Shown: positions 3 through 13,790, counted from the first letter of the stretch. The stretch is DNA of 64,000 nucleotides from Aggregatilineales bacterium (GCA_030834905.1 JAUQWZ010000022.1:28335-92334); one strand, 5' to 3'. Numbers and translations are program-made. The notes: generated by a model from the letters alone, not told the origin.

Positions 3-1763
3 CGGGTCTACGACAGCACCATCGTCGGAAACGTCGCCATCAATGGCGGCGGCGGCATCGTCAGCAACGGGGTTCTGGTGTATTTACGCCGCGTCTCTAT
101 TCGCGAAAATTATGCGGGTGGTGGTGCAGGACTCCAGACCGATTTCAGCGGTAGGCTAGATGCTGAATGCGTACAGTTCTGGGATAATTCCAGTGGCTAT
201 GGTGTTGGCGTATTAAGCGGTGCCAGCAGCAACACCAGCGCGCAGGTAAGCATCCATTACAGCAGTTTATATGGGAATCTGACGATCAATAATCCAAATC
301 CTGAAGAAGATATCTTTAACCTGCTGCCCAACAACGTTAGCATACAGGCGCAGCAGAATTGGTGGGGCGCAGATGGAGTACCTGCCGTATTCGACGGGCA
401 AACGGGCGCGTCAATTGACACGTCATCGGCGCTTTCATTCGACCCGACGATTCCCATCAACGGACAATATGCGATTTCCGAATGTGAGCCACAACTGCCG
501 GAAGTGCCGCCAACTCCCACACCTACTCCCACTCCTACCCCAACGGAGACGCCGACGCCCACCTTTACGCCGACACCTGACCCTGCGTTGCCGTATTACG
601 AACGATTCGAAGGACTGATGTTCTGGATTATGTACAATGAAACTTCACAGAATATAGTAGAGGATCAGTTCGACATAGTGGAAACGGCTGCGAACAATGG
701 GTCGCCCACTGATCCTAACAGAGTAGTTCTAGTCCCTTCATCAGCCAGCTTCCCACGAGAACAGCGTGGAGTACGCTATCTCTTCGGGCGCACAATTCTG
801 AATAACATCCCAGACTACGTACCCGGTTCAGAGGCAGCGGGGTATGAAGGAGGTTATGCATATGGGAGAAATTGGGGAGGGTCTATAAACGATCCAAACA
901 ATACGATATGGAGCAGCTATCAAGGATGCCCTGACACACATGGGTGGAACTACAATGGTGGTACGCTTCCGTCGTATAGCAGTATATACAACGGGACTGC
1001 TCTACAGATTTTGGATTGGTTCAGTGATTATGCTAGTTGCCGCGCTGCTGCTAATCCGAACTTTCAACCACATTATCAGATGTTAATCAGCGTTATCGGT
1101 ACGGCTACGCAGCATCATATAGCTAACACTCCCAATCCGGCTGGCAATGCCTATTACATTCGCAATGCGAATAGTTGCTTCGTCTCTGATCCGCCAGGTG
1201 GTGCTTGCATTACAACAAATACAATCCAAGCATGGTGTACAGGGGCAGGTCGTAACTGTAGAAGTGCAAACGTGTACGTAGAAGAAGTATCTACCGGAGC
1301 AGTGGGCGTTACGGTCGCTGATTGGTACAATTACAATCAACTACCAAGTCAGTATAGTACCCCTATTGCTGAACCCCAAAATCTTGTATTCAACCCGACT
1401 TATCTCTTTGATCCGTTGACCTCTGGGAACCCGCAACAGATAACCTACAACTCACAGGTCGGGGTACATTACCATATCAGTACTGGGCTATACGATGTTG
1501 ATAGTCAGGCACGATATTTCCTAATGGGGATAGGAGCTAGCCAGTTCTCTGAAACCATAGAGTCTGCCTTTGCTAGGCACTGGAATCGATTGAACCGGGA
1601 TCGAACTCCGGTAAATCCAGAAACGCTCTATCCAAGCACCTGCATCAATGCGGCAGCCCACATTACCTTTGGTCAAGGTGCATTTCAAACTTGGGCTACC
1701 TACATTTTCCAAGCCGAAACTCAAACACCAGGAGGTGATATATGGTTCTGCGCCGCACCATGA
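3..1763 (+). CDS. 5'-truncated large secreted/surface protein: beta-helix (Pmp-like) repeats, conserved NWWG module, Pro/Thr linker, variable C-terminal domain (candidate polymorphic effector, cassette 1)
   Basis: Frame is open from position 3 (RVYDSTIVGNVAINGGGGIVSNG...), so the gene starts before the window. GG-rich beta-helix-like repeats, PT repeats at ~512-582, stop TGA at 1761-1763 overlaps the next ATG. Confidence 0.8.
   Translation, partial: RVYDSTIVGNVAINGGGGIVSNGVLVYLRRVSIRENYAGGGAGLQTDFSGRLDAECVQFWDNSSGYGVGVLSGASSNTSAQVSIHYSSLYGNLTINNPNPEEDIFNLLPNNVSIQAQQNWWGADGVPAVFDGQTGASIDTSSALSFDPTIPINGQYAISECEPQLPEVPPTPTPTPTPTPTETPTPTFTPTPDPALPYYERFEGLMFWIMYNETSQNIVEDQFDIVETAANNGSPTDPNRVVLVPSSASFPREQRGVRYLFGRTILNNIPDYVPGSEAAGYEGGYAYGRNWGGSINDPNNTIWSSYQGCPDTHGWNYNGGTLPSYSSIYNGTALQILDWFSDYASCRAAANPNFQPHYQMLISVIGTATQHHIANTPNPAGNAYYIRNANSCFVSDPPGGACITTNTIQAWCTGAGRNCRSANVYVEEVSTGAVGVTVADWYNYNQLPSQYSTPIAEPQNLVFNPTYLFDPLTSGNPQQITYNSQVGVHYHISTGLYDVDSQARYFLMGIGASQFSETIESAFARHWNRLNRDRTPVNPETLYPSTCINAAAHITFGQGAFQTWATYIFQAETQTPGGDIWFCAAP
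315..455 (+). repeat. Arm 1, copy 1 (conserved module FNLLPNNVSIQAQQNWWGADGVPAVFDGQTGASIDTSSALSFDPTIP)
   Basis: 315-370 matches 3037-3092 at 54/56 nt; 347-424 matches 7636-7713 at 77/78 nt (manual alignment). Confidence 0.95.
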
Positions 1764-2983
1764 ACATTTTCAAGTTGTTTGCCCTAATAGTCATTTGGCA
1801 AACATTTATACCTTCCGTTGTGGCTCAAAATGCCTCCCTTACCTTTACTGCTTGGAGTCCCGATGGCATATTTCTAGCAGTTACCAGCGGATCGACCGTA
1901 CAAATAGTCGATGTAGCCACAAGTCAACCAACGAATCAACTTTCGGACTTGTCTGAGCAAGTCACTGCATCATTGTGGAGTCCAGACGGGAGCAGACTAG
2001 CGGTTGCAAATGGTTCTACTTTAGAAATATGGCAGCAACCTTGGGATGGGGGTCTTGCAAGCCTTGAAGCGAGATTACAATCTACCGCATACATTCGCTC
2101 AATGGCATGGAATCCGCAAGGTAACCAAATCGCTATCGCCCATGATGCGGTGGAAGTATGGAATTTGGGAACTCGTACTCAGATTTATAGCGTATACGCC
2201 CATAACGGCTTCATCACGCAAATTTCGTGGAGTCCCGATGGGGCACGGTTTGCTACCACGAGTGTAGACAGGAGCGTAAAAGTCTGGGATGCAGCGACAG
2301 GAGCAATATTAAGCACCATGACTGTTGTGCAAAATTCCAATTTGCCCGTATCCGAAATTTTTACAGTCGCCACGTCAGTCTCATGGAGTCCGGTCAATAC
2401 GGAGTTGGTTTTCGGAGCAGAAGATGGGACAACGCGCCTTTGGAATACGGCTCAGTTAACTGGGAGTGAAGTCAGAACATCTGAAAACAGCCCAGGAGTT
2501 TTTCGTGCTAATGAAGAGGCAGTTCTAGCCGTTGATTGGAATCCTACAGGGACAGAAGTCGCCGCTGGTGCTAGGGATGGTATCGTTTCTATCTGGGATA
2601 CAGAAACAGGTGACCAATTACAAACGTTTCAAAGTGATCTCAGCATAAATTCCGTCTCCTACAGTCCATACGGCGGCAGATTGGCAATAAGTGGAAGTTC
2701 ACCGCTGTCACAAGTAGATACCGACCTTTCGATAAACGCTTCTCAATTTCTTGCCAATGGCGCAGTCCAAATCGTTGTCCCCGCACCCTCACTTGAACGG
2801 CTGCAAACGATTGCGGATGCTTGCAACGCGCCTATTGCCATCGAGCAGTCGCTCACTGCCAGCATCCAAGCCGATCAACTCGCGGATGTAGTCGCACAGG
2901 TTGAAGCGCTGCCGGAGAACACCATCCCGCCCGCCTGCGCCGCCGATTTGATCGCGGTAGCAGAAGCGCTGCAAAGCCAGTAG
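1760..2983 (+). CDS. Secreted WD40 beta-propeller protein with conserved helical C-terminal tail (candidate immunity protein 1)
   Basis: ATGA overlap with upstream stop; signal-peptide-like MNIFKLFALIVIWQTFIPSVVA|Q; repeated WSPDG/WD motifs; tail shared with 8888-10096. Confidence 0.9.
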   Translation: MNIFKLFALIVIWQTFIPSVVAQNASLTFTAWSPDGIFLAVTSGSTVQIVDVATSQPTNQLSDLSEQVTASLWSPDGSRLAVANGSTLEIWQQPWDGGLASLEARLQSTAYIRSMAWNPQGNQIAIAHDAVEVWNLGTRTQIYSVYAHNGFITQISWSPDGARFATTSVDRSVKVWDAATGAILSTMTVVQNSNLPVSEIFTVATSVSWSPVNTELVFGAEDGTTRLWNTAQLTGSEVRTSENSPGVFRANEEAVLAVDWNPTGTEVAAGARDGIVSIWDTETGDQLQTFQSDLSINSVSYSPYGGRLAISGSSPLSQVDTDLSINASQFLANGAVQIVVPAPSLERLQTIADACNAPIAIEQSLTASIQADQLADVVAQVEALPENTIPPACAADLIAVAEALQSQ

Positions 2984-3025
2984 CTTCACGCTCACAAAGG
3001 GCGCATCCACGCGGGTGCGCCCGTT
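2906..3025 (+). repeat. Arm 2, copy 1 (WD40 3' end, stop codon and hairpin)
   Basis: 115/120 nt identical to 10019-10138; includes hairpin GGGCGCATCC-ACGC-GGGTGCGCCC at 2999-3022. Confidence 0.95.
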
Positions 3026-3036
3026 TCCCTTGAACA

Positions 3037-3092
3037 TTTAACCTGCTGCCCAACAACGTAAGCATACAGGCGCAGCAGAACTGGTGGGGCGC
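3037..3092 (+). repeat. Arm 1, truncated copy (untranslatable fragment FNLLPNNVSIQAQQNWWGA)
   Basis: 54/56 identical to 315-370; in-frame stops at 3031-3033 and 3100-3102; 3069-3092 is identical to 7636-7659. Confidence 0.95.
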
Positions 3093-3094
3093 TG

Positions 3095-4273
3095 ATGACT
3101 AACTCTGCAATTGAAGACGCTAAACAGGCGGCGCTGTCAGTGCTGCTCCACAATGCTCACGGAGACTATCACGGGCTGCCGCGTACCGCCGGGTGGGGCT
3201 ATGCCGAACCCTACACCCGCGACCTGATGATCGCCAGCCTGGGGATGCTGGTGACCGGCGATCAAACCCTGCTGGCGTCTACGCGGGCGGTTCTGGAAGC
3301 GCTGGCGTCGAACCAGACGCCGCTGGGACACATTCCCGGCTTAGCGCACGATCCCGGCGATCTTGGCTCCAGCGATACGACGCCGCTGTTTCTCATCGGG
3401 CTGGCGCTGTTTCGCGCGGCGGCGGGCGAGGCGCGCTTTCTCTCTGCTGCTGCCGAAAAGGCGCTCACCTGGCTGCGATATCAGAGTCCCGATAACAGCG
3501 GGCTGGTGGCGCAGCAGCCGACCAGCGACTGGCGCGATGAACAGTGGGTGCCGGGCTTTGGGCTGTACGTCAATACGCTGGTCTACATCGCGCTGCGGCT
3601 CTGGGATCGCAGCGAAGAAGCTGACGCGGTGGGGCGGCTCATCAATTTGCCCATCGTCAGGGCGGGCTGGAAGGATGCTCACGTCCACGAAGGCTTAGCC
3701 ATTCCTGACAAGCCTTACTATGCCCTGTGGTCATACAAAGTCCACAACAGCGAGCGCTTTGATTTGCTCGGCAACAGTCTGGCAGTCCTGTCGGGCGCGG
3801 CGTCGCCGGCTAAAGCCAGCCAGATGGTGGACTGGATCGAATCCCAGTGTCAGGCGCTCCAGCGAAACCATGCGCTGGCGGTGAATCTGCCGCCCTGTCT
3901 GTTTCCCTACATTCAGCCCGGCGATGGCGACTGGAACCCGCGTTATCAGCAGTTTAACCAGCCGGGCGAGTATCACAACGGCGGTCTGTGGCCCTTTGCC
4001 ATCGGCTTCTACATCGCCGCGCTGGTCGCTGCCGGACGCGCTGACCTTGCCAGCGACAAGCTTGATCTTCTGACCGAGCTAATCCGCCTCGCGCGGCAGG
4101 TCAACGTCACCTTCGGATTTAATGAGTGGCTGCGGGCGCAGGATGGAACGCCGCGCGGGCAGGACTGGCAGACGTGGTCGGCGGCGATGTATCTGTACGC
4201 GGCGGCGGCGGTTGAAGAAAATCGGACGCCGTTTTTAGACCATCTGCGCGGGCAAAACAGCGCTGCCGGATAA
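3095..4273 (+). CDS. Glycoside hydrolase, (alpha/alpha)6 type (GH100/amylo-alpha-1,6-glucosidase-like)
   Basis: Motifs GWGYAEPYTRD, DWRDE, YHNGGLWPF, QDWQTWSAAMY. Confidence 0.75.
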   Translation: MTNSAIEDAKQAALSVLLHNAHGDYHGLPRTAGWGYAEPYTRDLMIASLGMLVTGDQTLLASTRAVLEALASNQTPLGHIPGLAHDPGDLGSSDTTPLFLIGLALFRAAAGEARFLSAAAEKALTWLRYQSPDNSGLVAQQPTSDWRDEQWVPGFGLYVNTLVYIALRLWDRSEEADAVGRLINLPIVRAGWKDAHVHEGLAIPDKPYYALWSYKVHNSERFDLLGNSLAVLSGAASPAKASQMVDWIESQCQALQRNHALAVNLPPCLFPYIQPGDGDWNPRYQQFNQPGEYHNGGLWPFAIGFYIAALVAAGRADLASDKLDLLTELIRLARQVNVTFGFNEWLRAQDGTPRGQDWQTWSAAMYLYAAAAVEENRTPFLDHLRGQNSAAG

Positions 4274-4326
4274 GCCGAACGGGACGCATCCACACGGATG
4301 CGTCCCATTCAGCGCGTCCTCCAGTT

Positions 4327-4659
4327 TCAGGGGATCTCCGGCGCGTCAGCGTCGTCGTTTTCGAGGAAGTGCTTCAGCCGCACCAGGCGTTCATCCCACT
4401 TGAAGCCGATTTCCTTGATCCATTGATCGACTTCCTTCAGCGGGTCGGGTCTGAAGCTGTAACGTTTTTCACGTCCCGCCTGATAGACGGTGACCAGCCC
4501 GGCATCTTTGAGGATGTGCAGATGCTTGATAATCCCCTGTCGGGTGATCGGGTATTCCTCTGCGAGCTGGGTCGCCGTCCTGGGGCTGTGTTCCGCCAGG
4601 TTCACCAGCAAATCCCGGCGCACCGGGTCAGCCAGCGCGGCGAAAACGGGTCTGTCCAT
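4327..4659 (-). CDS. ArsR/SmtB family transcriptional regulator
   Basis: VFAALADPVRR...ITRQGIIKHLHILKDAGLV; paired with an SRPBCC gene. Confidence 0.9.
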   Translation of the reverse strand: MDRPVFAALADPVRRDLLVNLAEHSPRTATQLAEEYPITRQGIIKHLHILKDAGLVTVYQAGREKRYSFRPDPLKEVDQWIKEIGFKWDERLVRLKHFLENDDADAPEIP

Positions 4660-4822
4660 AGTTCATGCGGCAGGTTTCCGCCCTCCAGATATGATGTCAG
4701 ACTAAAGTATTGTCTGTGGGCGCAGCACTGCTGCGCCCCTGCTTTCAACTTTACACTTGCGACTCAGTACTCTCCTACAGCCGCCGAATGTCTTAAGGTG
4801 CTCGACTCGTTTGGCTAAGCCG

Positions 4823-5749
4823 CTAAAAACCCTGTGGTATCGGCAGGCTGTAGCCCTCGATCACGGCTTTCACGTTCCCCAGCATCATACCAAAGCCGAA
4901 ACTGTTCTGCTCCATATCGGTCCAGCGAATAGCGTCCGGCACCGATTCATAGCCGGAATAGATCAGCGTCAGGCGCGTGCCGCCAGCTTCCTCTTTCAGC
5001 ACCCAGTCGGTGGTATACGATGCTTCTTCGCCTTCCGGCACCGAGCGCGTCATCAGTCGATGAGGCGGATCGACCACTTCGAGGATCTGGACGTACATTT
5101 CTCCACCCGTTTCCGGGTTCTCCACGTAAAGCCGCGCGCCCACGCCCGTCCCCGTCACCTTAAACGTGGTTCCCGGCGCAAACCACTGCTCGATCTGCCC
5201 CGGATCGGTCAGCGCCTGCCACACGCGCTGGCGCGACGCTTTGATCCAGATGCTGCGTTCGAGCGAGACGCTGTCTTTTGATTCGCGCCAGAAGCCCAAC
5301 AGCGGGCTGACATAAGCGTGCGGGAACGGCAGGTCGGCGCTGGCGAGATAGGCTTTCAGGTTTTCCAGCGTCTTTTCCCAGCCAGCCCGGATCTGATCGA
5401 GCCGATCCTCGCGGGCATCTTCCGGCAGCGCTTCAAATCCACTCATGGTCACGGTGACGCGCGTGCCAGCCTGCTCCTCGTCCAGTCTGTAGGTGGTGAT
5501 GATCTGGCGTTCCGGCACGCTGCGCAGGGCAGCTTCGCGCGGCGGGTTCACCAGTTCCAACTGGAACACGTCAATTCCCATCTCTCCCATGTGGATCGTG
5601 ACCTTGCCGCTGTCATCACGGGTCATTTGCGCGCCCGGCAGGTTGGGCACAAACCACTGCGCCACCTGTTCGGGGTTGGTCACCGCTTCCCATACTCGCT
5701 CGCGCGGAGCGCCAATCCAGATGCTGCGTTCAACGGTTATCGTCTGCAC
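4823..5749 (-). CDS. Tandem SRPBCC/AHSA1 domain protein
   Basis: Two repeats of ERSIWI.A.R.RVW.A.T.P.Q..QWF; GTG start with AGGAGG upstream. Confidence 0.9.
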   Translation of the reverse strand: MQTITVERSIWIGAPRERVWEAVTNPEQVAQWFVPNLPGAQMTRDDSGKVTIHMGEMGIDVFQLELVNPPREAALRSVPERQIITTYRLDEEQAGTRVTVTMSGFEALPEDAREDRLDQIRAGWEKTLENLKAYLASADLPFPHAYVSPLLGFWRESKDSVSLERSIWIKASRQRVWQALTDPGQIEQWFAPGTTFKVTGTGVGARLYVENPETGGEMYVQILEVVDPPHRLMTRSVPEGEEASYTTDWVLKEEAGGTRLTLIYSGYESVPDAIRWTDMEQNSFGFGMMLGNVKAVIEGYSLPIPQGF

Positions 5750-5766
5750 GTCCTATGCCTCCTATG

Positions 5767-5784
5767 TGTAACCAAACGGTTGCA
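5767..5784. promoter_or_regulatory. Putative operator of the ArsR-SRPBCC operon
   Basis: Imperfect inverted repeat TGTAACC-N4-GGTTGCA just upstream of the SRPBCC ribosome-binding site. Confidence 0.45.
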
Positions 5785-5931
5785 TATACTGTATTAGAAA
5801 AAGCGTTCTATGTCAAGTCATTCGCCAGGGCAGGTTTCAGCATCGTCGCCCCGGCGTCCGATTCTCGTCACTTGCTCCTAAGCATCTGGTGGCTTAAACT
5901 GTACACAGAGCAGTCTCAGAGAACACGCACT

Positions 5932-7530
5932 ATGATGGCAACACCGCCCGACGACCTGATCGGCAAGACACTTGGACAGTTTGAAATTCTGGACGAAATC
6001 GGACGCGGCGGCATGGCAACCGTTTACCGCGCCCGCCAGCGTTCGATTAATCGCATGGTGGCGGTCAAAGTGCTGCCGCGCGCGCTGCTGCACGACCCCA
6101 GCTTTTACGAGCGCTTCACTCGCGAAGTGGACGTGATCGCCCATCTTGAACACCCGCACATTCTGCCGATTTACGACTATGGCGAAGTTGAGGGCATCCC
6201 CTACATCGCCATGCGCTATCTCGCCGGGGGCAGTCTGGCGCAGGTGATTCGCCGCGGGCTGATGCCGCTGGAGCAGTTGATCAAGCCGTTCTCGCAGATC
6301 GGGCAGGCGCTGGATCACGCGCACCAGCAGGGCGTCATCCATCGCGATCTCAAGCCGGGAAATATCCTGCTCGATGAGCGCGGCAACGCCTACCTGTCCG
6401 ATTTCGGCATCGCCCGCGTCCTCAACAGCAGCCTGACCGGCAGCGCCATCATCGGCACGCCCGCTTACATGAGTCCTGAACAGGCGAACGGCTATCCGCT
6501 GGATGGTCGCTCGGATGTTTACGCGCTGGGCGTGGTGTTGTTCGAGATGATCGCCGGACGCGAGCCGTTTGAAGCCGAAACGCCGGTTGCCATGCTGATG
6601 AAGCACATCAACGAGCCGATGCCTCCTATTCGCCAGTTCCGTCCGGGTACGCCAGAGGCGGTTGAGCAGGTGCTTTTCCGGGCGACGGCGAAACATCCCG
6701 ACCAACGCTTTCCGTCGGCGGGCGATCTGGCGGCTGCCTTCAGCGAAGCGGTCTATCAACCGGCGTCGCGCCCGATGATGCCGCCCATCAATCAGGACGA
6801 TACGCCCACGATGATCCCCGAAGCTGGCTCGGCGGCACGTCTCACGCCGTCGCATCTCACCCCGCCCGCGCAGACCACATCGCCAGCGGATCAGCATCCG
6901 ACCACGTTTGAATCGCACCACCCGGCACAAAGCCGCCTGCCAGCGCTGCTGATCGGGCTGGTTTTGGTGGTCGTCGTGGTTGGCGCGGCGGTGCTGTTCA
7001 TCGCCACCCGCCCGTCGGATATCCCGCCGACTCCCACGCCGCCGGTTGTCGCCCTGCCAACGCCGTTTGCCAACGCGCGGGTGGCTCGTGCCGATACCTA
7101 TACGCTCTCGGTGCCGGATAGCTGGCGGTTCACCGATCTGTCGGCGGACGATGGCGTGCTGACTCACGTCTGGCAGGATGGGCTGGACGCCTACATCGGC
7201 TTATCGCTGATCCCGGCGGAGATAGGCAATCAGGATGCTTTCCGGGGGCAGATCACCGCCTACCTCGCAGACCACTACGCCGAAGACGCCTATACGTTCG
7301 TGGACGAAGCCATCGCGCCGGACGGCACAGTGCGCCGCAGCTACCGCCTGTTTGGGCAGGTACAGCCCGAATTCGCGCCCGGACAGACCGACACCTTCTT
7401 CTTCAACCGCGCGCCCTATTTCGTCGTGCTTGAGCTTTACGCCTCGGACGCATACGGCAGCGACCTCGTGCCGCAGTACCAGCAGGTGCTCGATTCGCTC
7501 CGCATCCTCCCGCAGGTCGAGCAGGGGTAA
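5932..7530 (+). CDS. Membrane-anchored Hanks-type Ser/Thr protein kinase
   Basis: GRGGMATVY, VAVK, HRDLKPGN, DFG, GTPAYMSPE motifs; transmembrane helix and extracellular C-terminal domain. Start taken at MMATPP. Confidence 0.95.
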   Translation: MMATPPDDLIGKTLGQFEILDEIGRGGMATVYRARQRSINRMVAVKVLPRALLHDPSFYERFTREVDVIAHLEHPHILPIYDYGEVEGIPYIAMRYLAGGSLAQVIRRGLMPLEQLIKPFSQIGQALDHAHQQGVIHRDLKPGNILLDERGNAYLSDFGIARVLNSSLTGSAIIGTPAYMSPEQANGYPLDGRSDVYALGVVLFEMIAGREPFEAETPVAMLMKHINEPMPPIRQFRPGTPEAVEQVLFRATAKHPDQRFPSAGDLAAAFSEAVYQPASRPMMPPINQDDTPTMIPEAGSAARLTPSHLTPPAQTTSPADQHPTTFESHHPAQSRLPALLIGLVLVVVVVGAAVLFIATRPSDIPPTPTPPVVALPTPFANARVARADTYTLSVPDSWRFTDLSADDGVLTHVWQDGLDAYIGLSLIPAEIGNQDAFRGQITAYLADHYAEDAYTFVDEAIAPDGTVRRSYRLFGQVQPEFAPGQTDTFFFNRAPYFVVLELYASDAYGSDLVPQYQQVLDSLRILPQVEQG

Positions 7531-7557
7531 TACCGTACCCGCATACCAACCGGACAG

Positions 7558-7590
7558 GAGCCGTCATGAATAATGGACGGCTCTTTTGTT
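7558..7590 (+). terminator. Rho-independent terminator after the kinase, directly upstream of orphan cassette 2
   Basis: GAGCCGTC-N10-GACGGCTC followed by TTTTGTT. Confidence 0.75.
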
Positions 7591-8857
7591 ATGCTGTGAT
7601 TGTGGCAAGCTGGTACCGAATGATGTGACCATTATGGCGCAGCAGAACTGGTGGGGCGCAGATGGAGTACCTGCCGTATTCGACGGGCAAACGGGCGCGT
7701 CAATTGACACGTCGCAGGCGCTTTCGTTTGACCCAACAATACCTAACCCTGTCACTGGACTGTATGACGTGCCGCAGTGTGCGCCTGCAGCTCCAGAAAC
7801 GCCGCCCACGCCCACACCGACCTTTACGCTGACACCGACGCCTACCAATACCCCGACACCGACGAATACGCCGACCTACGCGCCTTCGACCTCTTTAGAC
7901 CTCAATGGCACGAATAGCGGGCTGAAAGCGGTGATCTTCTGGGCGATATTCCATGAGTCCAGTTCAGATAACTTCGATTCGGGTAGTCCCGTTGATAATT
8001 TTGACTTAGGCAACCCTCGATTCGCCAGTTTCCTATTCAATAACCCATATTGCTCACCTGGCAGTGTTCCAGGCGACAATGCCGCTGAATCACCATTCCA
8101 AAATTGGTACATCCGTCACTGTCCATATGATTATCGTTATATGGTTGCTCAGACGATGTTCAATGGATTCTTGAACTATGAACGGCGGTTCGGCGTAAAT
8201 AGCGCATTCGAGTATGCCGAGCAAAACTTCGGTGGCTCGATTGGAAACACCGCTGCTGGTTTATGGCTAATCTCAGATTGCCAGGTAAATCAGTATGGCA
8301 CAAGCTATGCCGCAGCCCGAGTGAGCAGTGGTCAAAGTACCGCCTATGCAAACGCAATCGGATGGCTCACTGAATATATGACCTGCCTAGCTGGTTTGAG
8401 CACTACCGATTACACCCCAATACGGGTACAACGAGCGTACCAGAGTACCATTTGGTCACAGATCAATGTAGCCGTAAATGATTTCTACACTGATCCTCAA
8501 GACTACACAGATGGCGCTTTTCAAGCCAAAGTCATTAATTTCGGAGCAACACGAACACTGGTTACTTGCGTTGGAGGCTGCTATATCCAGGGGACATCAG
8601 GTGTTGTCTACACTTACGAGTCACCACAAGATCAATTTCTTGGTTTTGCGACAACACCAGTCACAAATATAAGTCAAGCAGACGTAACTGATGCATACAA
8701 CACTCACATGACACAAATCAGCAGTTACACTCCAAGTTTCCACTCAGTTGCGCAACCGATTCTGATTTACAGCTATAACAGTGGAAATCATGTTGGTTAC
8801 GTGTGGGAAACAGAAATTTATCAACAAACGACAGATATGTCTCACACCCCTAGGTAG
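7586..8857 (+). CDS. Orphan C-terminal cassette 2: arm 1 module, Pro/Thr linker and variable domain; lacks the N-terminal body (possibly silent)
   Basis: Begins directly with arm 1 (KLVPNDVTIMAQQNWWG...); in-frame stop at 7571-7573; no signal peptide or clear RBS; possible ATG at 7634. Confidence 0.7.
   Translation: MLCCDCGKLVPNDVTIMAQQNWWGADGVPAVFDGQTGASIDTSQALSFDPTIPNPVTGLYDVPQCAPAAPETPPTPTPTFTLTPTPTNTPTPTNTPTYAPSTSLDLNGTNSGLKAVIFWAIFHESSSDNFDSGSPVDNFDLGNPRFASFLFNNPYCSPGSVPGDNAAESPFQNWYIRHCPYDYRYMVAQTMFNGFLNYERRFGVNSAFEYAEQNFGGSIGNTAAGLWLISDCQVNQYGTSYAAARVSSGQSTAYANAIGWLTEYMTCLAGLSTTDYTPIRVQRAYQSTIWSQINVAVNDFYTDPQDYTDGAFQAKVINFGATRTLVTCVGGCYIQGTSGVVYTYESPQDQFLGFATTPVTNISQADVTDAYNTHMTQISSYTPSFHSVAQPILIYSYNSGNHVGYVWETEIYQQTTDMSHTPR
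7636..7743 (+). repeat. Arm 1, copy 3
   Basis: 7636-7713 is 77/78 identical to 347-424; similarity then decays, mostly at third codon positions. Confidence 0.95.
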
Positions 8858-8887: not shown

Positions 8888-10096
8888 ATGAAGAAACCAT
8901 CCTATATTATTTTGCTCATCAACATGATCTTGGTATTCAGTCTTCTAAGTCTCGGCTTAAAAGCTTTTGCTCAGAGTACAAAGGGAGATGTCAGTGCTCT
9001 ATCGTGGAATCAAGATGGGGTGCGGCTCGCTATTGGCTTTGAATCTGGACTAATTGAAGTCGTAAATACACAGACTGGAGAAACGGTATTCACCAACTCG
9101 GCGTTACAACGAGTAGCCTCTTTGGATTGGAGTCCTCTCTATTTAGACTATTTAGCGGTAGGAGGAAACACAGGAAGTCTAGCGGGTACAGTAATTGTTA
9201 TAAACACCCTTTCCAATCAGATTCAATACTCTCTAGAAAGCGGTGAAAGTCTCAGTTCTACCGCGTGGAGTCCTGATGGCACAAAGATTGCAGCAACAAG
9301 TAACATCGTCGGTACACCTATAACTTCAAGGAATGAAGTCCGAGTTTGGGATGCTGGCACAGGAGAGTTATTAACGAATTCGCTGTTCTCCATTGGCCCA
9401 ATCACGTCCATTGCTTGGAGTCCTACTAGTCAGCAGATTGCGGGTTCAACTACTGATCATGTCACGTTGATTTGGGATGTCGCTACGGGAGCGGTCATAC
9501 ATACTCTTACGGGACATACGGACGTAGTAATGTCTGTTGCATGGAGTTCCGACGGTCGTCAGCTAGCTACTACCGGAAGTGTTCTTGACAACACAGTCAG
9601 GATTTGGAACGCAGATACGAGCGAGAACATTTCCTCGTTTCCGAGTAGATTCGGGATAGTGAGATGGAGTGCTGTTGGCAACCTGTTAGCTATTGGCGAG
9701 AGTGGCTCCTTAAGACTCTTGGATGCTGGCACAGGGGAAGAATTTGGATCGATCCAACTGAATGCGGTGAGCCGTGCATTCGCATACAGTCCCTATGGTG
9801 GACGACTTGCATTAGCTGGTTCAGCTCCATCAACTCACACAATGGAGAACGCTGTCCAAACACTTGCCAACGGTGCCGTCCAAATCGTCGTTCCCGTCCC
9901 TTCGCCCGAACGGCTGCAAGCGATTGCCGATGCATGCAACGCGCCTGCCGCTGTCGGGCAATCGCTGACTGCCAGTCTGCAAGCCGACCTACTCAGCAGC
10001 TTCATCGCACAGGTGGAGGCGCTGCCGGAGAACACCATCCCGCCCGCCTGCGCCGCCGATTTGATCGCGGTGGCAGAAGCGCTGCAAAGTCGGTAG
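8888..10096 (+). CDS. Secreted WD40 beta-propeller protein with conserved C-terminal tail (candidate immunity protein 2)
   Basis: AAGGAG RBS; signal peptide ...LKAFA|Q; WD repeats; tail LANGAVQIVVP...ALPENTIPPACAADLIAVAEALQS shared with 1760-2983. Confidence 0.9.
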   Translation: MKKPSYIILLINMILVFSLLSLGLKAFAQSTKGDVSALSWNQDGVRLAIGFESGLIEVVNTQTGETVFTNSALQRVASLDWSPLYLDYLAVGGNTGSLAGTVIVINTLSNQIQYSLESGESLSSTAWSPDGTKIAATSNIVGTPITSRNEVRVWDAGTGELLTNSLFSIGPITSIAWSPTSQQIAGSTTDHVTLIWDVATGAVIHTLTGHTDVVMSVAWSSDGRQLATTGSVLDNTVRIWNADTSENISSFPSRFGIVRWSAVGNLLAIGESGSLRLLDAGTGEEFGSIQLNAVSRAFAYSPYGGRLALAGSAPSTHTMENAVQTLANGAVQIVVPVPSPERLQAIADACNAPAAVGQSLTASLQADLLSSFIAQVEALPENTIPPACAADLIAVAEALQSR

Positions 10097-10138
10097 CATC
10101 ACGCTCACAAAGGGCGCATCCATGCGGGTGCGCCCGTT
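10019..10138 (+). repeat. Arm 2, copy 2
   Basis: 115/120 identical to 2906-3025; hairpin at 10112-10135. Confidence 0.95.
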
Positions 10139-10249
10139 CTCACCCTGTACCCATGTCCATTCGATCTGTATAATGCCTTGTCCTCGCAGCAAACATGGTC
10201 GTTCGCTGTACCCCACTTAGCACTTCCATAAGAACTTTGCTAGAACTCC

Positions 10250-10278
10250 TTGACTGTAACCCCTGCTTTTGCTATAGT
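10250..10278 (+). promoter_or_regulatory. Sigma70-type promoter of groESL
   Basis: TTGACT (10250-10255), 17 bp spacer, TATAGT (10273-10278). Confidence 0.8.
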
Positions 10279-10291
10279 TCGGGGTATGGCA

Positions 10292-10318
10292 TTAGCACTC
10301 AGATGATGCGAGTGCTAA
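10292..10318. promoter_or_regulatory. CIRCE element (HrcA operator)
   Basis: Exact consensus TTAGCACTC-N9-GAGTGCTAA upstream of groES. Confidence 0.97.
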
Positions 10319-10374
10319 GTTTTCGTTTAATCACCCTTTGCAAGTGGGATATCAATACTGGAGGTCATGAGGTT

Positions 10375-10671
10375 ATGCCCGTGAAAATTCGCCCCCTCGG
10401 TGATCGCGTGCTCATAGAGCCGGTCGAGCAGGAAGAGACTATCGCGGGCGGTATGCTGGTGCTGCCAGAAACCGCCAAGGAAAAGCCGCAGCAGGGCAAC
10501 GTCATTGCTGTTGGCGCTGGTCGTCGCGACGACGACGGTGATCGCATTGAGATGGACGTGAAGGCTGGCGATAAGGTGCTGTTCGCCAAATATGCTGGCA
10601 CCGAAGTCAAGCTGGACGGCAAGAAGCTGCTGATCATGAAGGAAACAGACATCCTGGGAATCGTCGAGTAA
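10375..10671 (+). CDS. groES: Co-chaperonin GroES
   Basis: [16 protein letters not shown]...[12 protein letters not shown]; start at ATG 10375 after GAGGT. Confidence 0.98.
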
Positions 10672-10746
10672 TCGACCTGGTTCGCAGGATTTGTTTTTGA
10701 ATTTCCCCCGTACACAAATGACGTATGATGAAACAGGAGAGTGAAT

Positions 10747-12381
10747 ATGGCTGCTAAACAACTGACTTTCCGCGAAGAAGCCCGTCGTGGTCTTCAGCGC
10801 GGTGTCGATAAGCTGGCAGAGGCAGTGAGCACCACCCTTGGTCCTAAGGGACGCAATGTGGCGCTCGATAAGAAATTTGGCGCGCCGACCGTGACCCATG
10901 ACGGCGTGACGGTGGCGAAGGAAATCGAACTCGAAGACCCGTATGAGAACATGGGCGCGCAGCTTCTGAAGGAAGCCGCCACCAAGACCAACGACATTGC
11001 CGGTGACGGCACGACCACCGCCACCGTTCTGGCGCAGGCGATTGTCAACGAAGGTCTGAAGAACGTCGCTGCTGGCGCGAACCCGATGCTGCTCAAGCGC
11101 GGCATCATGGCAGCCGCCGAAGCGATTGCCCGCAACATCAAGGAACAGGCGATTCCCATCAGCACCAAGGACGAGATTGCCAACGTTGCCAGCGTTTCGG
11201 CGCAGGACAGCGAAATCGGCAACCTGATCGCCGAAGTGATGGACAAGGTCGGCAAGGACGGCGTGGTCACGGTCGAAGAAAGCCGTGGTCTTGAGTTTGA
11301 AACCGAGTACGTCGAAGGTATGGCGTTTGACCGTGGCTACATCAGCCCCTACTTCATCACCAATCCTGAGGCGATGGAAGCGGTCATCGAAGAGCCGTAC
11401 ATCCTGATCTACGACAAGAAGGTCAGCGCGGCGCAGGATATCGTGCCTCTGCTGGAGAAGATGGTTCAGATCGGCAAGCGCGACATCGTCATCATCGCCG
11501 AAGACGTTGACGGCGAAGCCCTGGCGACGCTGGTGCTGAACAAGCTGCGCGGTATGCTCAACGTGCTGTCGATCAAGGCTCCCGGCTTTGGCGACCGCCG
11601 CAAGGCAATGCTGGCGGACATCGCCACCCTCACCGGCGGTCTGGTCATCAGCGAAGAGACGGGTCGCAAGCTCGAATCGGTCACGCTTCAGGATCTGGGT
11701 CGCGCGGCGAAGGTTGTTGCTACCAAGGACGAGACCACCATCGTGGACGGCGCTGGCGAAGAGAGCGCCATCAAGGGACGCATCGACCAGATCCGCAAGG
11801 AAATCGAACTGAGCACCAGCGACTATGACCGCGAGAAGCTCCAGGAGCGTCTGGCAAAGCTCAGCGGCGGCGTGGCGGTCATCCGCGTGGGCGCGGCGAC
11901 GGAAACCGAACTGAAAGAGAAGAAGCACCGTGTTGAGGACGCGCTGAGCGCGACCCGCGCAGCCGTTGAAGAGGGTATCGTCCCTGGCGGCGGCGTGGCG
12001 CTGATCAACGCGCTGCCCGCGCTCGACAGCCTCAAGTTCGACAACGAGGACGAGAACACGGGTGTCGTCATCGTCCGGCGGGCGCTGGAAGTGCCGATGA
12101 AGAAGATCGCCGCCAATGCCGGTATTGACGGCGCGGTGGTCATTCAGGAAGTGCGCCGCGCGCAGCAGGCGCAGAAGAACCCGAACATCGGCTACAACGT
12201 CATCACCAACGAGTACGGCGACATGATCGCCGCCGGTATTCCTGACCCGGCGAAGGTGACGCGCGGCGCGGTGGAGAACGCGGCTTCGATTGCCGCCATG
12301 ATCCTGACGACCGAAGTGCTGATCACCGATGCGCCGCAGAAGGAAGCCGCTGCGCCGATGCCGCAGATGCCGGAGTATTAA
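10747..12381 (+). CDS. groEL: Chaperonin GroEL
   Basis: [34 protein letters not shown] motifs; AGGAGA RBS. Confidence 0.99.
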
Positions 12382-12544: not shown

Positions 12545-13675
12545 TTAGCGGGGGATGCCCCAGAGGCGCAGGGTGGCGTCGTAGCCGGATGAGGCGAGCA
12601 GCGTGCCATCGGCGTTGAAGGCGAGGGCGGTGACTCCCGAGGCGTGACCTGTGAGCGAAACGAGCGCGGGCGTGTCGGGGCTGGCGAGGGCGGCGGTTAC
12701 GTCCCACAGATGGATGGCGCGGTCGAGGCTGGCGGAAGCGATCAGGCGACCATCGGGGCTGAAGGCGACGGCGGTGACGGCGCGAATATGCCCGAACAGG
12801 CGGGCGCGTTCGCCGCCTGCTGCGGCGTCCAGCAGGCGAACGGTGCCGTCACTGCGACCCTGGGCGATGAGCGTGCCGGTGGGATCGGTGACCTCGGCGG
12901 GCGGGTCTGACGGCTGGCTGATCGGGCGCTGCGCCATCTGCCCGGTCTGGAGATCCCAGGTATAGGCGGAACCGCTGTCTGAGATGGCGGTGACAGCGGT
13001 CGGAGACTCGAACGTCAGGGCGTTGAGGGGACACATGAAGCCGGGGATGGCGCGGCGCTGGAGCGACGGCGATACCATCTCGACTGAATCGCAGTAGCCG
13101 ATGCGGGCGAAGCCGCCGCTGGCGCTGAACGCCAGTTGATCCGGCGAGGCGTAGGACTGACCAAGACTTTCGAGGGTGGCGTACTCGGTCAGCGAGTCCA
13201 TGTTCCAGAGGCGAACGACGCCGCTGCTGTCGCCGCTGGCAAGCAGGGAACCACTGGCGCTGAAGGCGAGGCTGGCGACGGCGTAGAGATGGCTCTCAAA
13301 GCTGGCAAGTGGGGACAGCGAAGCGCTGTCCCAGACGTGGACGGTGCCATCGTCGCTGCCCGCCGCGATATGGCGGGCGCTGAGGGCGAGGCTGGCAGCG
13401 CCTGCTGGCAGTTCCAGCAGAACCGGAGAAGACTCGGGGATGCTGGCGTCGCGCAGCCAGACGCCGATAGACGAGGCGATCCCCAGCGTGTGACCATCGG
13501 GCGACCAGGCGAGGCTGCGGGCGCTGCCGCTGCCCAGCCGGGCGATCTGCGCCAGCGACCCGGCGCTGTCAGGCGTGATGCGATCAAGCGGCGGGAGCAC
13601 AAAATCGCCCTGCGCCCGGACGACGAACGGCAGCAGCAGAGATAGCAGGATGAGCAGGTATCGAAACACGGTCAT
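12545..13675 (-). CDS. Secreted WD40 repeat protein
   Basis: Signal peptide MTVFRYLLILL...VRA|Q; GH...V.A.AFS.DG.L.AS...D.T..LW repeats. Confidence 0.9.
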   Translation of the reverse strand: MTVFRYLLILLSLLLPFVVRAQGDFVLPPLDRITPDSAGSLAQIARLGSGSARSLAWSPDGHTLGIASSIGVWLRDASIPESSPVLLELPAGAASLALSARHIAAGSDDGTVHVWDSASLSPLASFESHLYAVASLAFSASGSLLASGDSSGVVRLWNMDSLTEYATLESLGQSYASPDQLAFSASGGFARIGYCDSVEMVSPSLQRRAIPGFMCPLNALTFESPTAVTAISDSGSAYTWDLQTGQMAQRPISQPSDPPAEVTDPTGTLIAQGRSDGTVRLLDAAAGGERARLFGHIRAVTAVAFSPDGRLIASASLDRAIHLWDVTAALASPDTPALVSLTGHASGVTALAFNADGTLLASSGYDATLRLWGIPR

Positions 13676-13790
13676 GCCTTTACAGATTCGGGACAGGGCG
13701 GACACCACATTGTCGTGTCCCTACTTGGCAGGCGGACAGTTCAATTCTACACTAAGACGCTTGTGAGCAGAACAGCCTGACGACTGCCCG

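Follow-up and report, generated by a model that had tools for sequence, protein, structure and literature searches.

A candidate toxin-like C-terminal domain and its secreted WD40 partners in the genome of an Aggregatilineales bacterium

The DNA analyzed here, referred to below as the window, is a stretch of 64,000 nucleotides, one strand, from Aggregatilineales bacterium (GCA_030834905.1 JAUQWZ010000022.1:28335-92334). Near its 5' end are two genes, here called gene A and gene B, whose products end in the variable C-terminal domains CT1 and CT2, and each gene is followed directly by a gene for a WD40 propeller (partners 1 and 2). CT1 and CT2 are real but distant relatives that belong to one superfamily, and their similarity is beyond that expected by chance. 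On balance, the evidence tips toward their being toxin-like C-terminal domains of a new kind, part of a cassette of the Sec-dependent polymorphic-toxin type, that would be directed at the cell envelope by way of an invariant Glu and would be neutralised by the cognate WD40 partner.

When cut after the PT linker that precedes each of them, CT1 and CT2 are about 22% identical, and BLASTP aligns them with an E value of 3e-4 (24% identity over 92 amino acids). Family profiles were built from relatives, 4 for CT1 and 9 for CT2, and were compared with HHalign; they aligned over about 190 columns with a probability of 98.6% and an E value of 7.7e-16. An earlier note on this DNA, made from the sequence alone, had paired five motifs in the two domains and had proposed that these form a shared skeleton despite low identity. 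All five pairs translate as claimed (Table 1) and all are in register in the HHalign alignment, so this part of the note is confirmed. In an alignment of 90 superfamily sequences the five motifs are the most conserved columns, and the top positions are F15, W16, E21, R66-Y67, N75, N98, W111, C117, W147, Y151, C154, D/N186-P187 and G190-A191. At an overall identity of about 20%, the Glu in the E21 column is kept in 89 of the 90 sequences. C117 is kept wherever its column is occupied (89 sequences) and C154 in 85; in CT1, C154 and C117 (927-929) make up the conserved Cys pair. The homology also reaches beyond the five motifs, to a C...GGC motif and to a beta-rich C-terminal lobe (W372/W310, P352/P286, Q378/Q316).

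The superfamily is rare. When 1.84 billion representative proteins were searched with a profile of the core common to both domains, just 126 clusters matched at E<=1e-3. In every one of these the domain is C-terminal, with 85-200 residues beyond the core. Among the genomes sampled, the superfamily is confined to the order of Anaerolineae to which the window belongs, and even there its distribution is patchy; it was found in 5 of 36 genomes of the genus, in 8 of 60 relatives within the order and in none of 250 genomes sampled elsewhere in the phylum. Pfam gave no match at E<=1 for CT1, CT2 or 67 relatives, and scans of CT1 and CT2 against NCBIfam and PHROGs gave no meaningful match. The sole PDB sequence match from phmmer and profile searches was between the W..Y..C helix and a CHCH-type 15 kDa subunit of complex I (9f5x_i, E 0.0028); we read this as a coincidence of motif and probably not as homology. 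A search of genome and metagenome contigs for related loci with a narrow peptide pattern returned 3 loci only, all of them already known. One contig of a metagenome-assembled genome, CAZBPB010000204.1, is labelled 'uncultured Pleurocapsa sp.' and shares an 843-amino acid open frame with a genome of the same genus as the window, the relatives of which bear the name Anaerolineae (L005/L013/L025). Its cyanobacterial label looks like an error of binning or naming.

The architecture of the proteins that carry the domain is modular. Ends of the CT1 or CT2 type are found behind beta-helices, PD40 propellers, ConA-like lectin domains (3keto-disac_hyd, Laminin_G), malectin and SH3_3, and in every case the N-terminal module is joined to the domain by a PT linker. 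Beta-helix-type scaffolds alike carry either a CT1-type or a CT2-type end. A Sec signal peptide was present on the carrier proteins with complete N-termini that were examined. Gene A runs into the window from outside; its complete product of 836 amino acids (L001:751-3261) consists of a Sec signal peptide, a PT-rich region, a right-handed beta-helix that terminates in QQNWWGADG...DPTIP, a PT linker and CT1, in that order. Gene B, for which the candidate starts are a TTG at 7586 and an ATG at 7634, repeats just the last part of the beta-helix and the PT linker of gene A and then continues into the different domain CT2; it has neither a signal peptide nor an N-terminal module. Many superfamily members in public data (P0008, P0013, P0029, P0032, P0037, P0040 and P0057) likewise start within the PT linker or shortly before it and lack an N-terminal module. 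Such module-less members could mean that orphan cassettes are common or, equally, that the contigs end there.

Comparison of the two units at the DNA level showed that similarity is restricted to two homology arms, one upstream and one downstream of the variable DNA (Table 1). The similarity of the upstream arm breaks off precisely where the PT linker ends and CT1 and CT2 begin; CT1 and CT2 are therefore old, diverged homologues rather than recent copies of one another. The two cassettes have a GC content of 0.46-0.50, against 0.60 in the rest of the window. A leftover fragment of the upstream arm lies just after partner 1 (3069-3097); between it and the remainder of the arm are unrelated GC-rich genes that span about 4.5 kb.

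A WD40 gene is located directly downstream of the domain in 11 of the 12 loci with enough downstream DNA, and these loci include very distant members of the superfamily. All nine partners whose N-terminus was captured have a signal peptide; a tenth, from L017, is N-terminally incomplete. Taken together, the homology arms, the module-less gene B, the modularity of the carrier proteins, the linkage to a partner gene and the patchy distribution correspond to the arrangement seen in Sec-dependent polymorphic toxin systems that include an orphan cassette. Partners 1 and 2 of the window are 38% identical and have a nearly identical C-terminal tail. This constant, helical tail with two Cys residues (..VVP.PS.ERL...QVEAL...CAADLIAVAEA; window 2750-2983 and 9863-10096) is found also in the partner of a metagenomic CT2-type gene (L010:1642-2931), and is missing from the other six partners with captured C-termini.

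Models of both domains were made with AlphaFold2 from alignments that remained shallow (19 rows), since a further protein search had contributed just four sequences. The CT2 model has a predicted local distance difference test score (pLDDT) of 73.9 (80-97 in the core helices) and a predicted template modelling score (pTM) of 0.80; the CT1 model is weaker (pTM 0.63), with residues 1-198 good. The domain, of 330-390 amino acids, is predicted to consist of an alpha-helical N-lobe of about 200 amino acids followed by a beta-rich C-lobe. The N-lobe holds the near-invariant Glu (FWxI[FY]NE[TS]S), the conserved Cys pair and a DPxxGA turn. In the models of both domains the Glu is at the end of a helix, and to this extent the interpretation in the earlier note is supported. 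In Foldseek searches of the two models against the PDB, which includes the SleB structures 4F55/4FET, the best E values were 0.14-0.27 with template modelling scores of at most 0.16, and there was no SleB or other lysozyme-like entry among the 50 matches listed; against BFVD nothing was found. Foldseek may, however, miss a small core that is broken by long insertions.

Because there is one near-invariant Glu together with many conserved Trp, Tyr and Asn residues, we infer that an enzyme that cleaves glycans with a single acid is the best fit for the domain. Other types of chemistry were considered and rejected. A papain- or transglutaminase-like Cys-His mechanism does not suit a domain in which the His is present in just 76% of the sequences and the invariant Cys residues are even in number, as for disulfides. 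ADP-ribosyltransferase-like R-S-E logic does not apply either, since the E[TS]S is at the end of a helix and not in strands. The sequence around the Glu recalls the HETTG of GH19, a resemblance that no fold match supports. A further alternative is that the domain is a non-catalytic module, such as an adhesin, a receptor binder or a pore-former, in which the conserved Glu and aromatic residues are structural. Such a module would account for the lack of any match to an enzyme family or fold and for the presence of a single near-invariant acidic residue. It accords poorly with the degree to which this Glu is conserved at such low overall identity, and with its position beside conserved polar residues of the N-lobe (Asn, Ser and Tyr), a setting that one would sooner associate with an active site than with a scaffold. 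We therefore consider a non-catalytic role very unlikely.

The earlier note had tentatively interpreted the shared motifs as a SleB-like (Hydrolase_2) skeleton. Under that interpretation the N-lobe would be a very diverged, lysozyme-like lytic transglycosylase core with long insertions, and E21 of CT1 and E27 of CT2 would correspond to the catalytic Glu of SleB. For comparison, a SleB profile was prepared from 12 diverse phage genes, related to each other, that are annotated as SleB-like or as endolysin and were retrieved by way of a Hydrolase_2 fragment. These sequences show the motifs EAxGE, VAxVxxNR, FPxTI..QFS and DPTxGA. A DPTxGA following a helix is present in our superfamily as well (D/N in 92% of sequences, P in 84%, G in 80%, A in 79%), in degenerate form in CT1 (NPAGNA), and as in the SleB sequences the Glu ends a helix and the DPTxGA turn leads into a beta-strand. 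When blocks of the superfamily were aligned singly to the SleB profile they reached the expected motifs in the right order: the Glu block at columns 25-28 (P 0.14), the RY helix on VAxVxxNR at 38-49 (P 0.07) and the helix plus DPTxGA at 91-110 (P 0.0013). Column-shuffled SleB profiles attained these block scores in 9, 1 and 0 of 120 trials, respectively, and never attained the joint score (0/120). The SleB sequences also scored above 400 real-protein decoys taken from this genome, both block by block (one-sided Mann-Whitney p 0.007, 0.005 and 0.0016) and jointly (one-sided Mann-Whitney p 7e-6, with 5 of the 12 past the 95th percentile of the decoys), but the block statistics overstate the case, because SleB had guided the choice of blocks and the 12 sequences are not independent of one another.

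Other comparisons argue against a SleB assignment. The PF07486 hidden Markov model gave no signal for CT1, CT2 or the 67 relatives, and matched nothing in the whole genome at E<=0.01. Full-length HHalign of the 90-sequence superfamily against the 12 SleB-like sequences returned a probability of 1.8%, with only the helix plus DPTxGA block aligned. When the blocks were instead chained in a mini-profile alignment (probability 5.8%), the Glu helix fell on the second helix of SleB (VAxVxxNR), with N-E on N-R, so that the correspondence of motifs is ambiguous. The near-invariant Glu ends a helix, as the catalytic Glu of SleB does, but is found in an NE[TS]S context in place of EAxGE. The FPxTI...QFS hairpin is absent from the superfamily, and in its place is a helical insert with a putative disulfide. 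The earlier note had itself remarked that the Arg of the NR motif is missing and that the insertions are long, and both remarks hold: the Asn is kept in 88% of sequences and is followed by Gly or Asn, never by a conserved Arg, while about 58 and 86 extra residues separate the motifs and make the core about twice as long as that of SleB. Hydrolase_2 is also nearly absent from the phylum (1 fragment, in 1 of 151 genomes). Finally, the note had named predicted folds unrelated to SleB or lysozyme as evidence that would count against its own proposal, and with the methods used no match to such folds was found for either model.

In our view the block-wise resemblance to SleB is weak, and only the block of helix plus DPTxGA makes it robust. 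The domain cannot be shown to belong to Hydrolase_2, and to label it SleB would be over-annotation; three short motifs are insufficient for naming a family. That the N-lobe is a true SleB-type core seems improbable to us, and we would give equally little credence to a relationship that is very remote or the product of convergence. The broader suggestion of the note, that these could be peptidoglycan-cleaving effectors, fares better in one respect, in that the genomic context fits secreted effectors with a cognate partner; the SleB-type assignment on which it was based is not supported.

We return to the proposal of a polymorphic toxin. Action outside the cytoplasm, on the envelope, is suggested because the domain protein and its partner are both exported, because the Cys counts of CT1 and CT2 are even (8 and 6), and because the modules at the N-terminus are of types that bind carbohydrate or wall. 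As we envisage it, the domain would be an extracellular enzyme toxin that attacks an envelope polymer of neighbouring cells. The invariant Glu would serve as a general acid, with cleavage of a glycan by a single Glu as the leading guess, and the cognate secreted WD40 propeller would bind the domain and block it on the producer cell. Gene A would then represent CT1 with partner 1, and CT2 with partner 2 would be a promoterless-looking orphan, both being bracketed by the homologous arms.

Several points weigh against this proposal. Dedicated genes for secretion or delivery were not found near the cassettes. The models matched no known fold of a toxin or enzyme, which makes the chemistry a guess from the invariant Glu and the many conserved aromatic residues, and the CT1 model is poor past residue 200. 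At 400-700 amino acids the partners are large for immunity proteins. The correlation of similarity between domains with similarity between their partners over 10 pairs (Mantel r 0.79, p 2e-4) speaks for the proposal, but it can be explained by linkage and shared descent alone. A different account of the locus is that the domain is a secreted catalytic or binding module, not a toxin, that takes part in the remodelling of polysaccharide, sheath or cell wall, that the WD40 protein is its working partner (a scaffold, chaperone or substrate binder), and that the copies are ordinary paralogues. Lectin or carbohydrate-binding-type N-terminal modules on PT linkers are a feature of modular glycoside hydrolases; housekeeping or carbohydrate-enzyme genes adjoin the cassettes, and the size of the WD40 proteins is in keeping with such a role. 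Ordinary paralogues would not be expected to include a gene like gene B, which lacks a signal peptide and an N-terminal module and yet keeps the arms on both sides. Nor does this account readily explain the low GC content of both cassettes, the patchiness of the family even inside the genus, the alternative C-terminal ends on one type of scaffold, or the joint divergence of domain and WD40 partner. For these reasons we regard it as unlikely.

Table 1. Positions in the window of the two cassettes, their motifs, the homology arms and the intervening genes.
Feature	Position	Strand	Remarks
Gene A, 3' two thirds	3..1763	+	Weak Pectate_lyase_5 match supports the beta-helix part
Upstream homology arm, copy 1 (beta-helix end QQNWWGADG..DPTIP and PT linker)	347..574	+	blastn, 76% over 243 nt vs 7636-7875
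PT linker 1 (gene A)	495..578	+	Translation
CT1 domain	579..1760	+	394 amino acids, 8 Cys; GC 0.475 vs 0.60 in rest of window
CT1 near-invariant Glu, E21, in FWxI[FY]NE[TS]S	639..641	+	Near end of model helix 11-22
CT1 RY..A.T..N helix motif (RYLFGRTILN)	774..803	+	
CT1 NWGGSI motif	870..887	+	
CT1 W..Y..C helix motif (DWFSDYASC)	1014..1040	+	Holds C154
CT1 degenerate DPxxGA turn (NPAGNAYY)	1134..1157	+	
WD40 propeller partner 1	1742..2983	+	Signal peptide; 22-nt overlap with end of gene A
Downstream homology arm, copy 1 (constant two-Cys WD40 partner tail and 3' flank)	2750..3025	+	blastn, 85.6% over 277 nt vs 9863-10138
Leftover upstream-arm fragment just after partner 1	3069..3097	+	96.6% identity to 7636-7664
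GH-like gene, within intervening ~4.5 kb	3095-4273		
SRPBCC/AHSA1 gene, within intervening ~4.5 kb	4823-5749	-	
Ser/Thr kinase gene, within intervening ~4.5 kb	5755-7530		
Gene B, orphan-like (arm, PT linker and CT2)	7586..8857	+	No signal peptide, no N-terminal module
Upstream homology arm, copy 2	7636..7875	+	blastn
PT linker of gene B	7781-7876	+	Translation
CT2 domain	7877..8854	+	326 amino acids, 6 Cys; GC 0.461
CT2 near-invariant Glu, E27	7955..7957	+	Final residue of model helix 16-27
CT2 RY..A.T..N helix motif (RYMVAQTMFN)	8135..8164	+	
CT2 NFGGSI motif	8225..8242	+	
CT2 W..Y..C helix motif (GWLTEYMTC)	8360..8386	+	
CT2 DPTxGA-type turn (DYTDGAFQ)	8501..8524	+	Family consensus DPTxGA[FY]
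WD40 propeller partner 2	8888..10096	+	Signal peptide
Downstream homology arm, copy 2	9863..10138	+	blastn

The genes that surround the two cassettes in the window are of a housekeeping nature, and include those for an amylase, an aldolase, GroES/GroEL and kinases. Another WD40-repeat protein, of 387 amino acids, is encoded at 12545-13708 on the minus strand, just past groES/groEL (10195-12381); no toxin-like domain adjoins it. In an Anaerolineae genome of the same genus (L004:15323-17692), a CT1-type gene and its WD40 partner are followed, a few kb downstream, by an open reading frame of 230 amino acids with a sub-threshold match to a CdiA-CT RNase A domain (E 6e-4), and then by another WD40 propeller gene. 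WD40 partners may thus accompany other toxin types in this lineage.

It is tempting to go further and to see in these genes a Sec-exported, envelope-lytic toxin of a new class, with a new fold, that is confined to one order of filamentous Anaerolineae, with full seven-bladed WD40 propellers as its polymorphic secreted immunity proteins; at present this is a speculative extension that we hold only tentatively. If it is true, the pairing of toxin and immunity protein is one that has not been described before, and it would likely be a system of kin discrimination in multicellular filaments. If the proposal of a polymorphic toxin holds, the repertoire of such toxins would gain an enzyme-like domain that has no match in Pfam, NCBIfam, PHROGs, the PDB or Foldseek searches, and an unusual type of immunity protein, the complete secreted WD40 propeller, would be added. 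There has been almost no experimental work on interbacterial antagonism in the Chloroflexota, and with an invariant Glu and a conserved partner gene the hypothesis lends itself to direct testing in laboratory strains.

The overall logic of a polymorphic toxin and its immunity gene is already known; full WD40 propellers as secreted cognate partners are unusual. At their N-terminus, Sec-dependent polymorphic toxins carry modules of the laminin-G, SH3 or propeller kind (Zhang et al. 2012, PMC3482391). As in those systems, among them CdiA-CT/CdiI and the Rhs orphan cassettes (PMC3482391), variable C-terminal domains are borne here on interchangeable secreted scaffolds, the cognate gene is directly downstream, and an orphan C-terminal cassette is found between homology arms. 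The differences are that the C-terminal domain described here matches no described toxin family, that its partner is a full secreted WD40 propeller of several hundred residues in place of a small immunity protein, and that a PT linker forms the junction, where no known domain of the pre-toxin or processing type is present. In the type VI system of Pseudomonas aeruginosa, the periplasmic immunity protein Tsi1, a partial propeller, blocks the peptidoglycan hydrolase Tse1 (PMC3391265). The resemblance to our cassettes is that of a proposed wall-directed effector paired with an exported, propeller-like immunity protein outside the cytoplasm. Tse1, however, is an amidase of the NlpC/P60 type delivered by type VI secretion and Tsi1 is small, whereas here export is by Sec and the WD40 propeller is complete. 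With SleB (PF07486) the domain has in common a Glu that ends an N-terminal helix, an amphipathic helix further on in which an Asn is conserved, and a helix that runs into a DPTxGA turn and then a strand; unlike SleB, it has an extra beta-rich C-lobe of 90-190 amino acids. A last comparison is with BLIP-II, which is not part of a toxin/immunity cassette and whose target is unrelated to this domain. It is a secreted seven-bladed propeller and a tight inhibitor of a secreted enzyme, the class A beta-lactamases.

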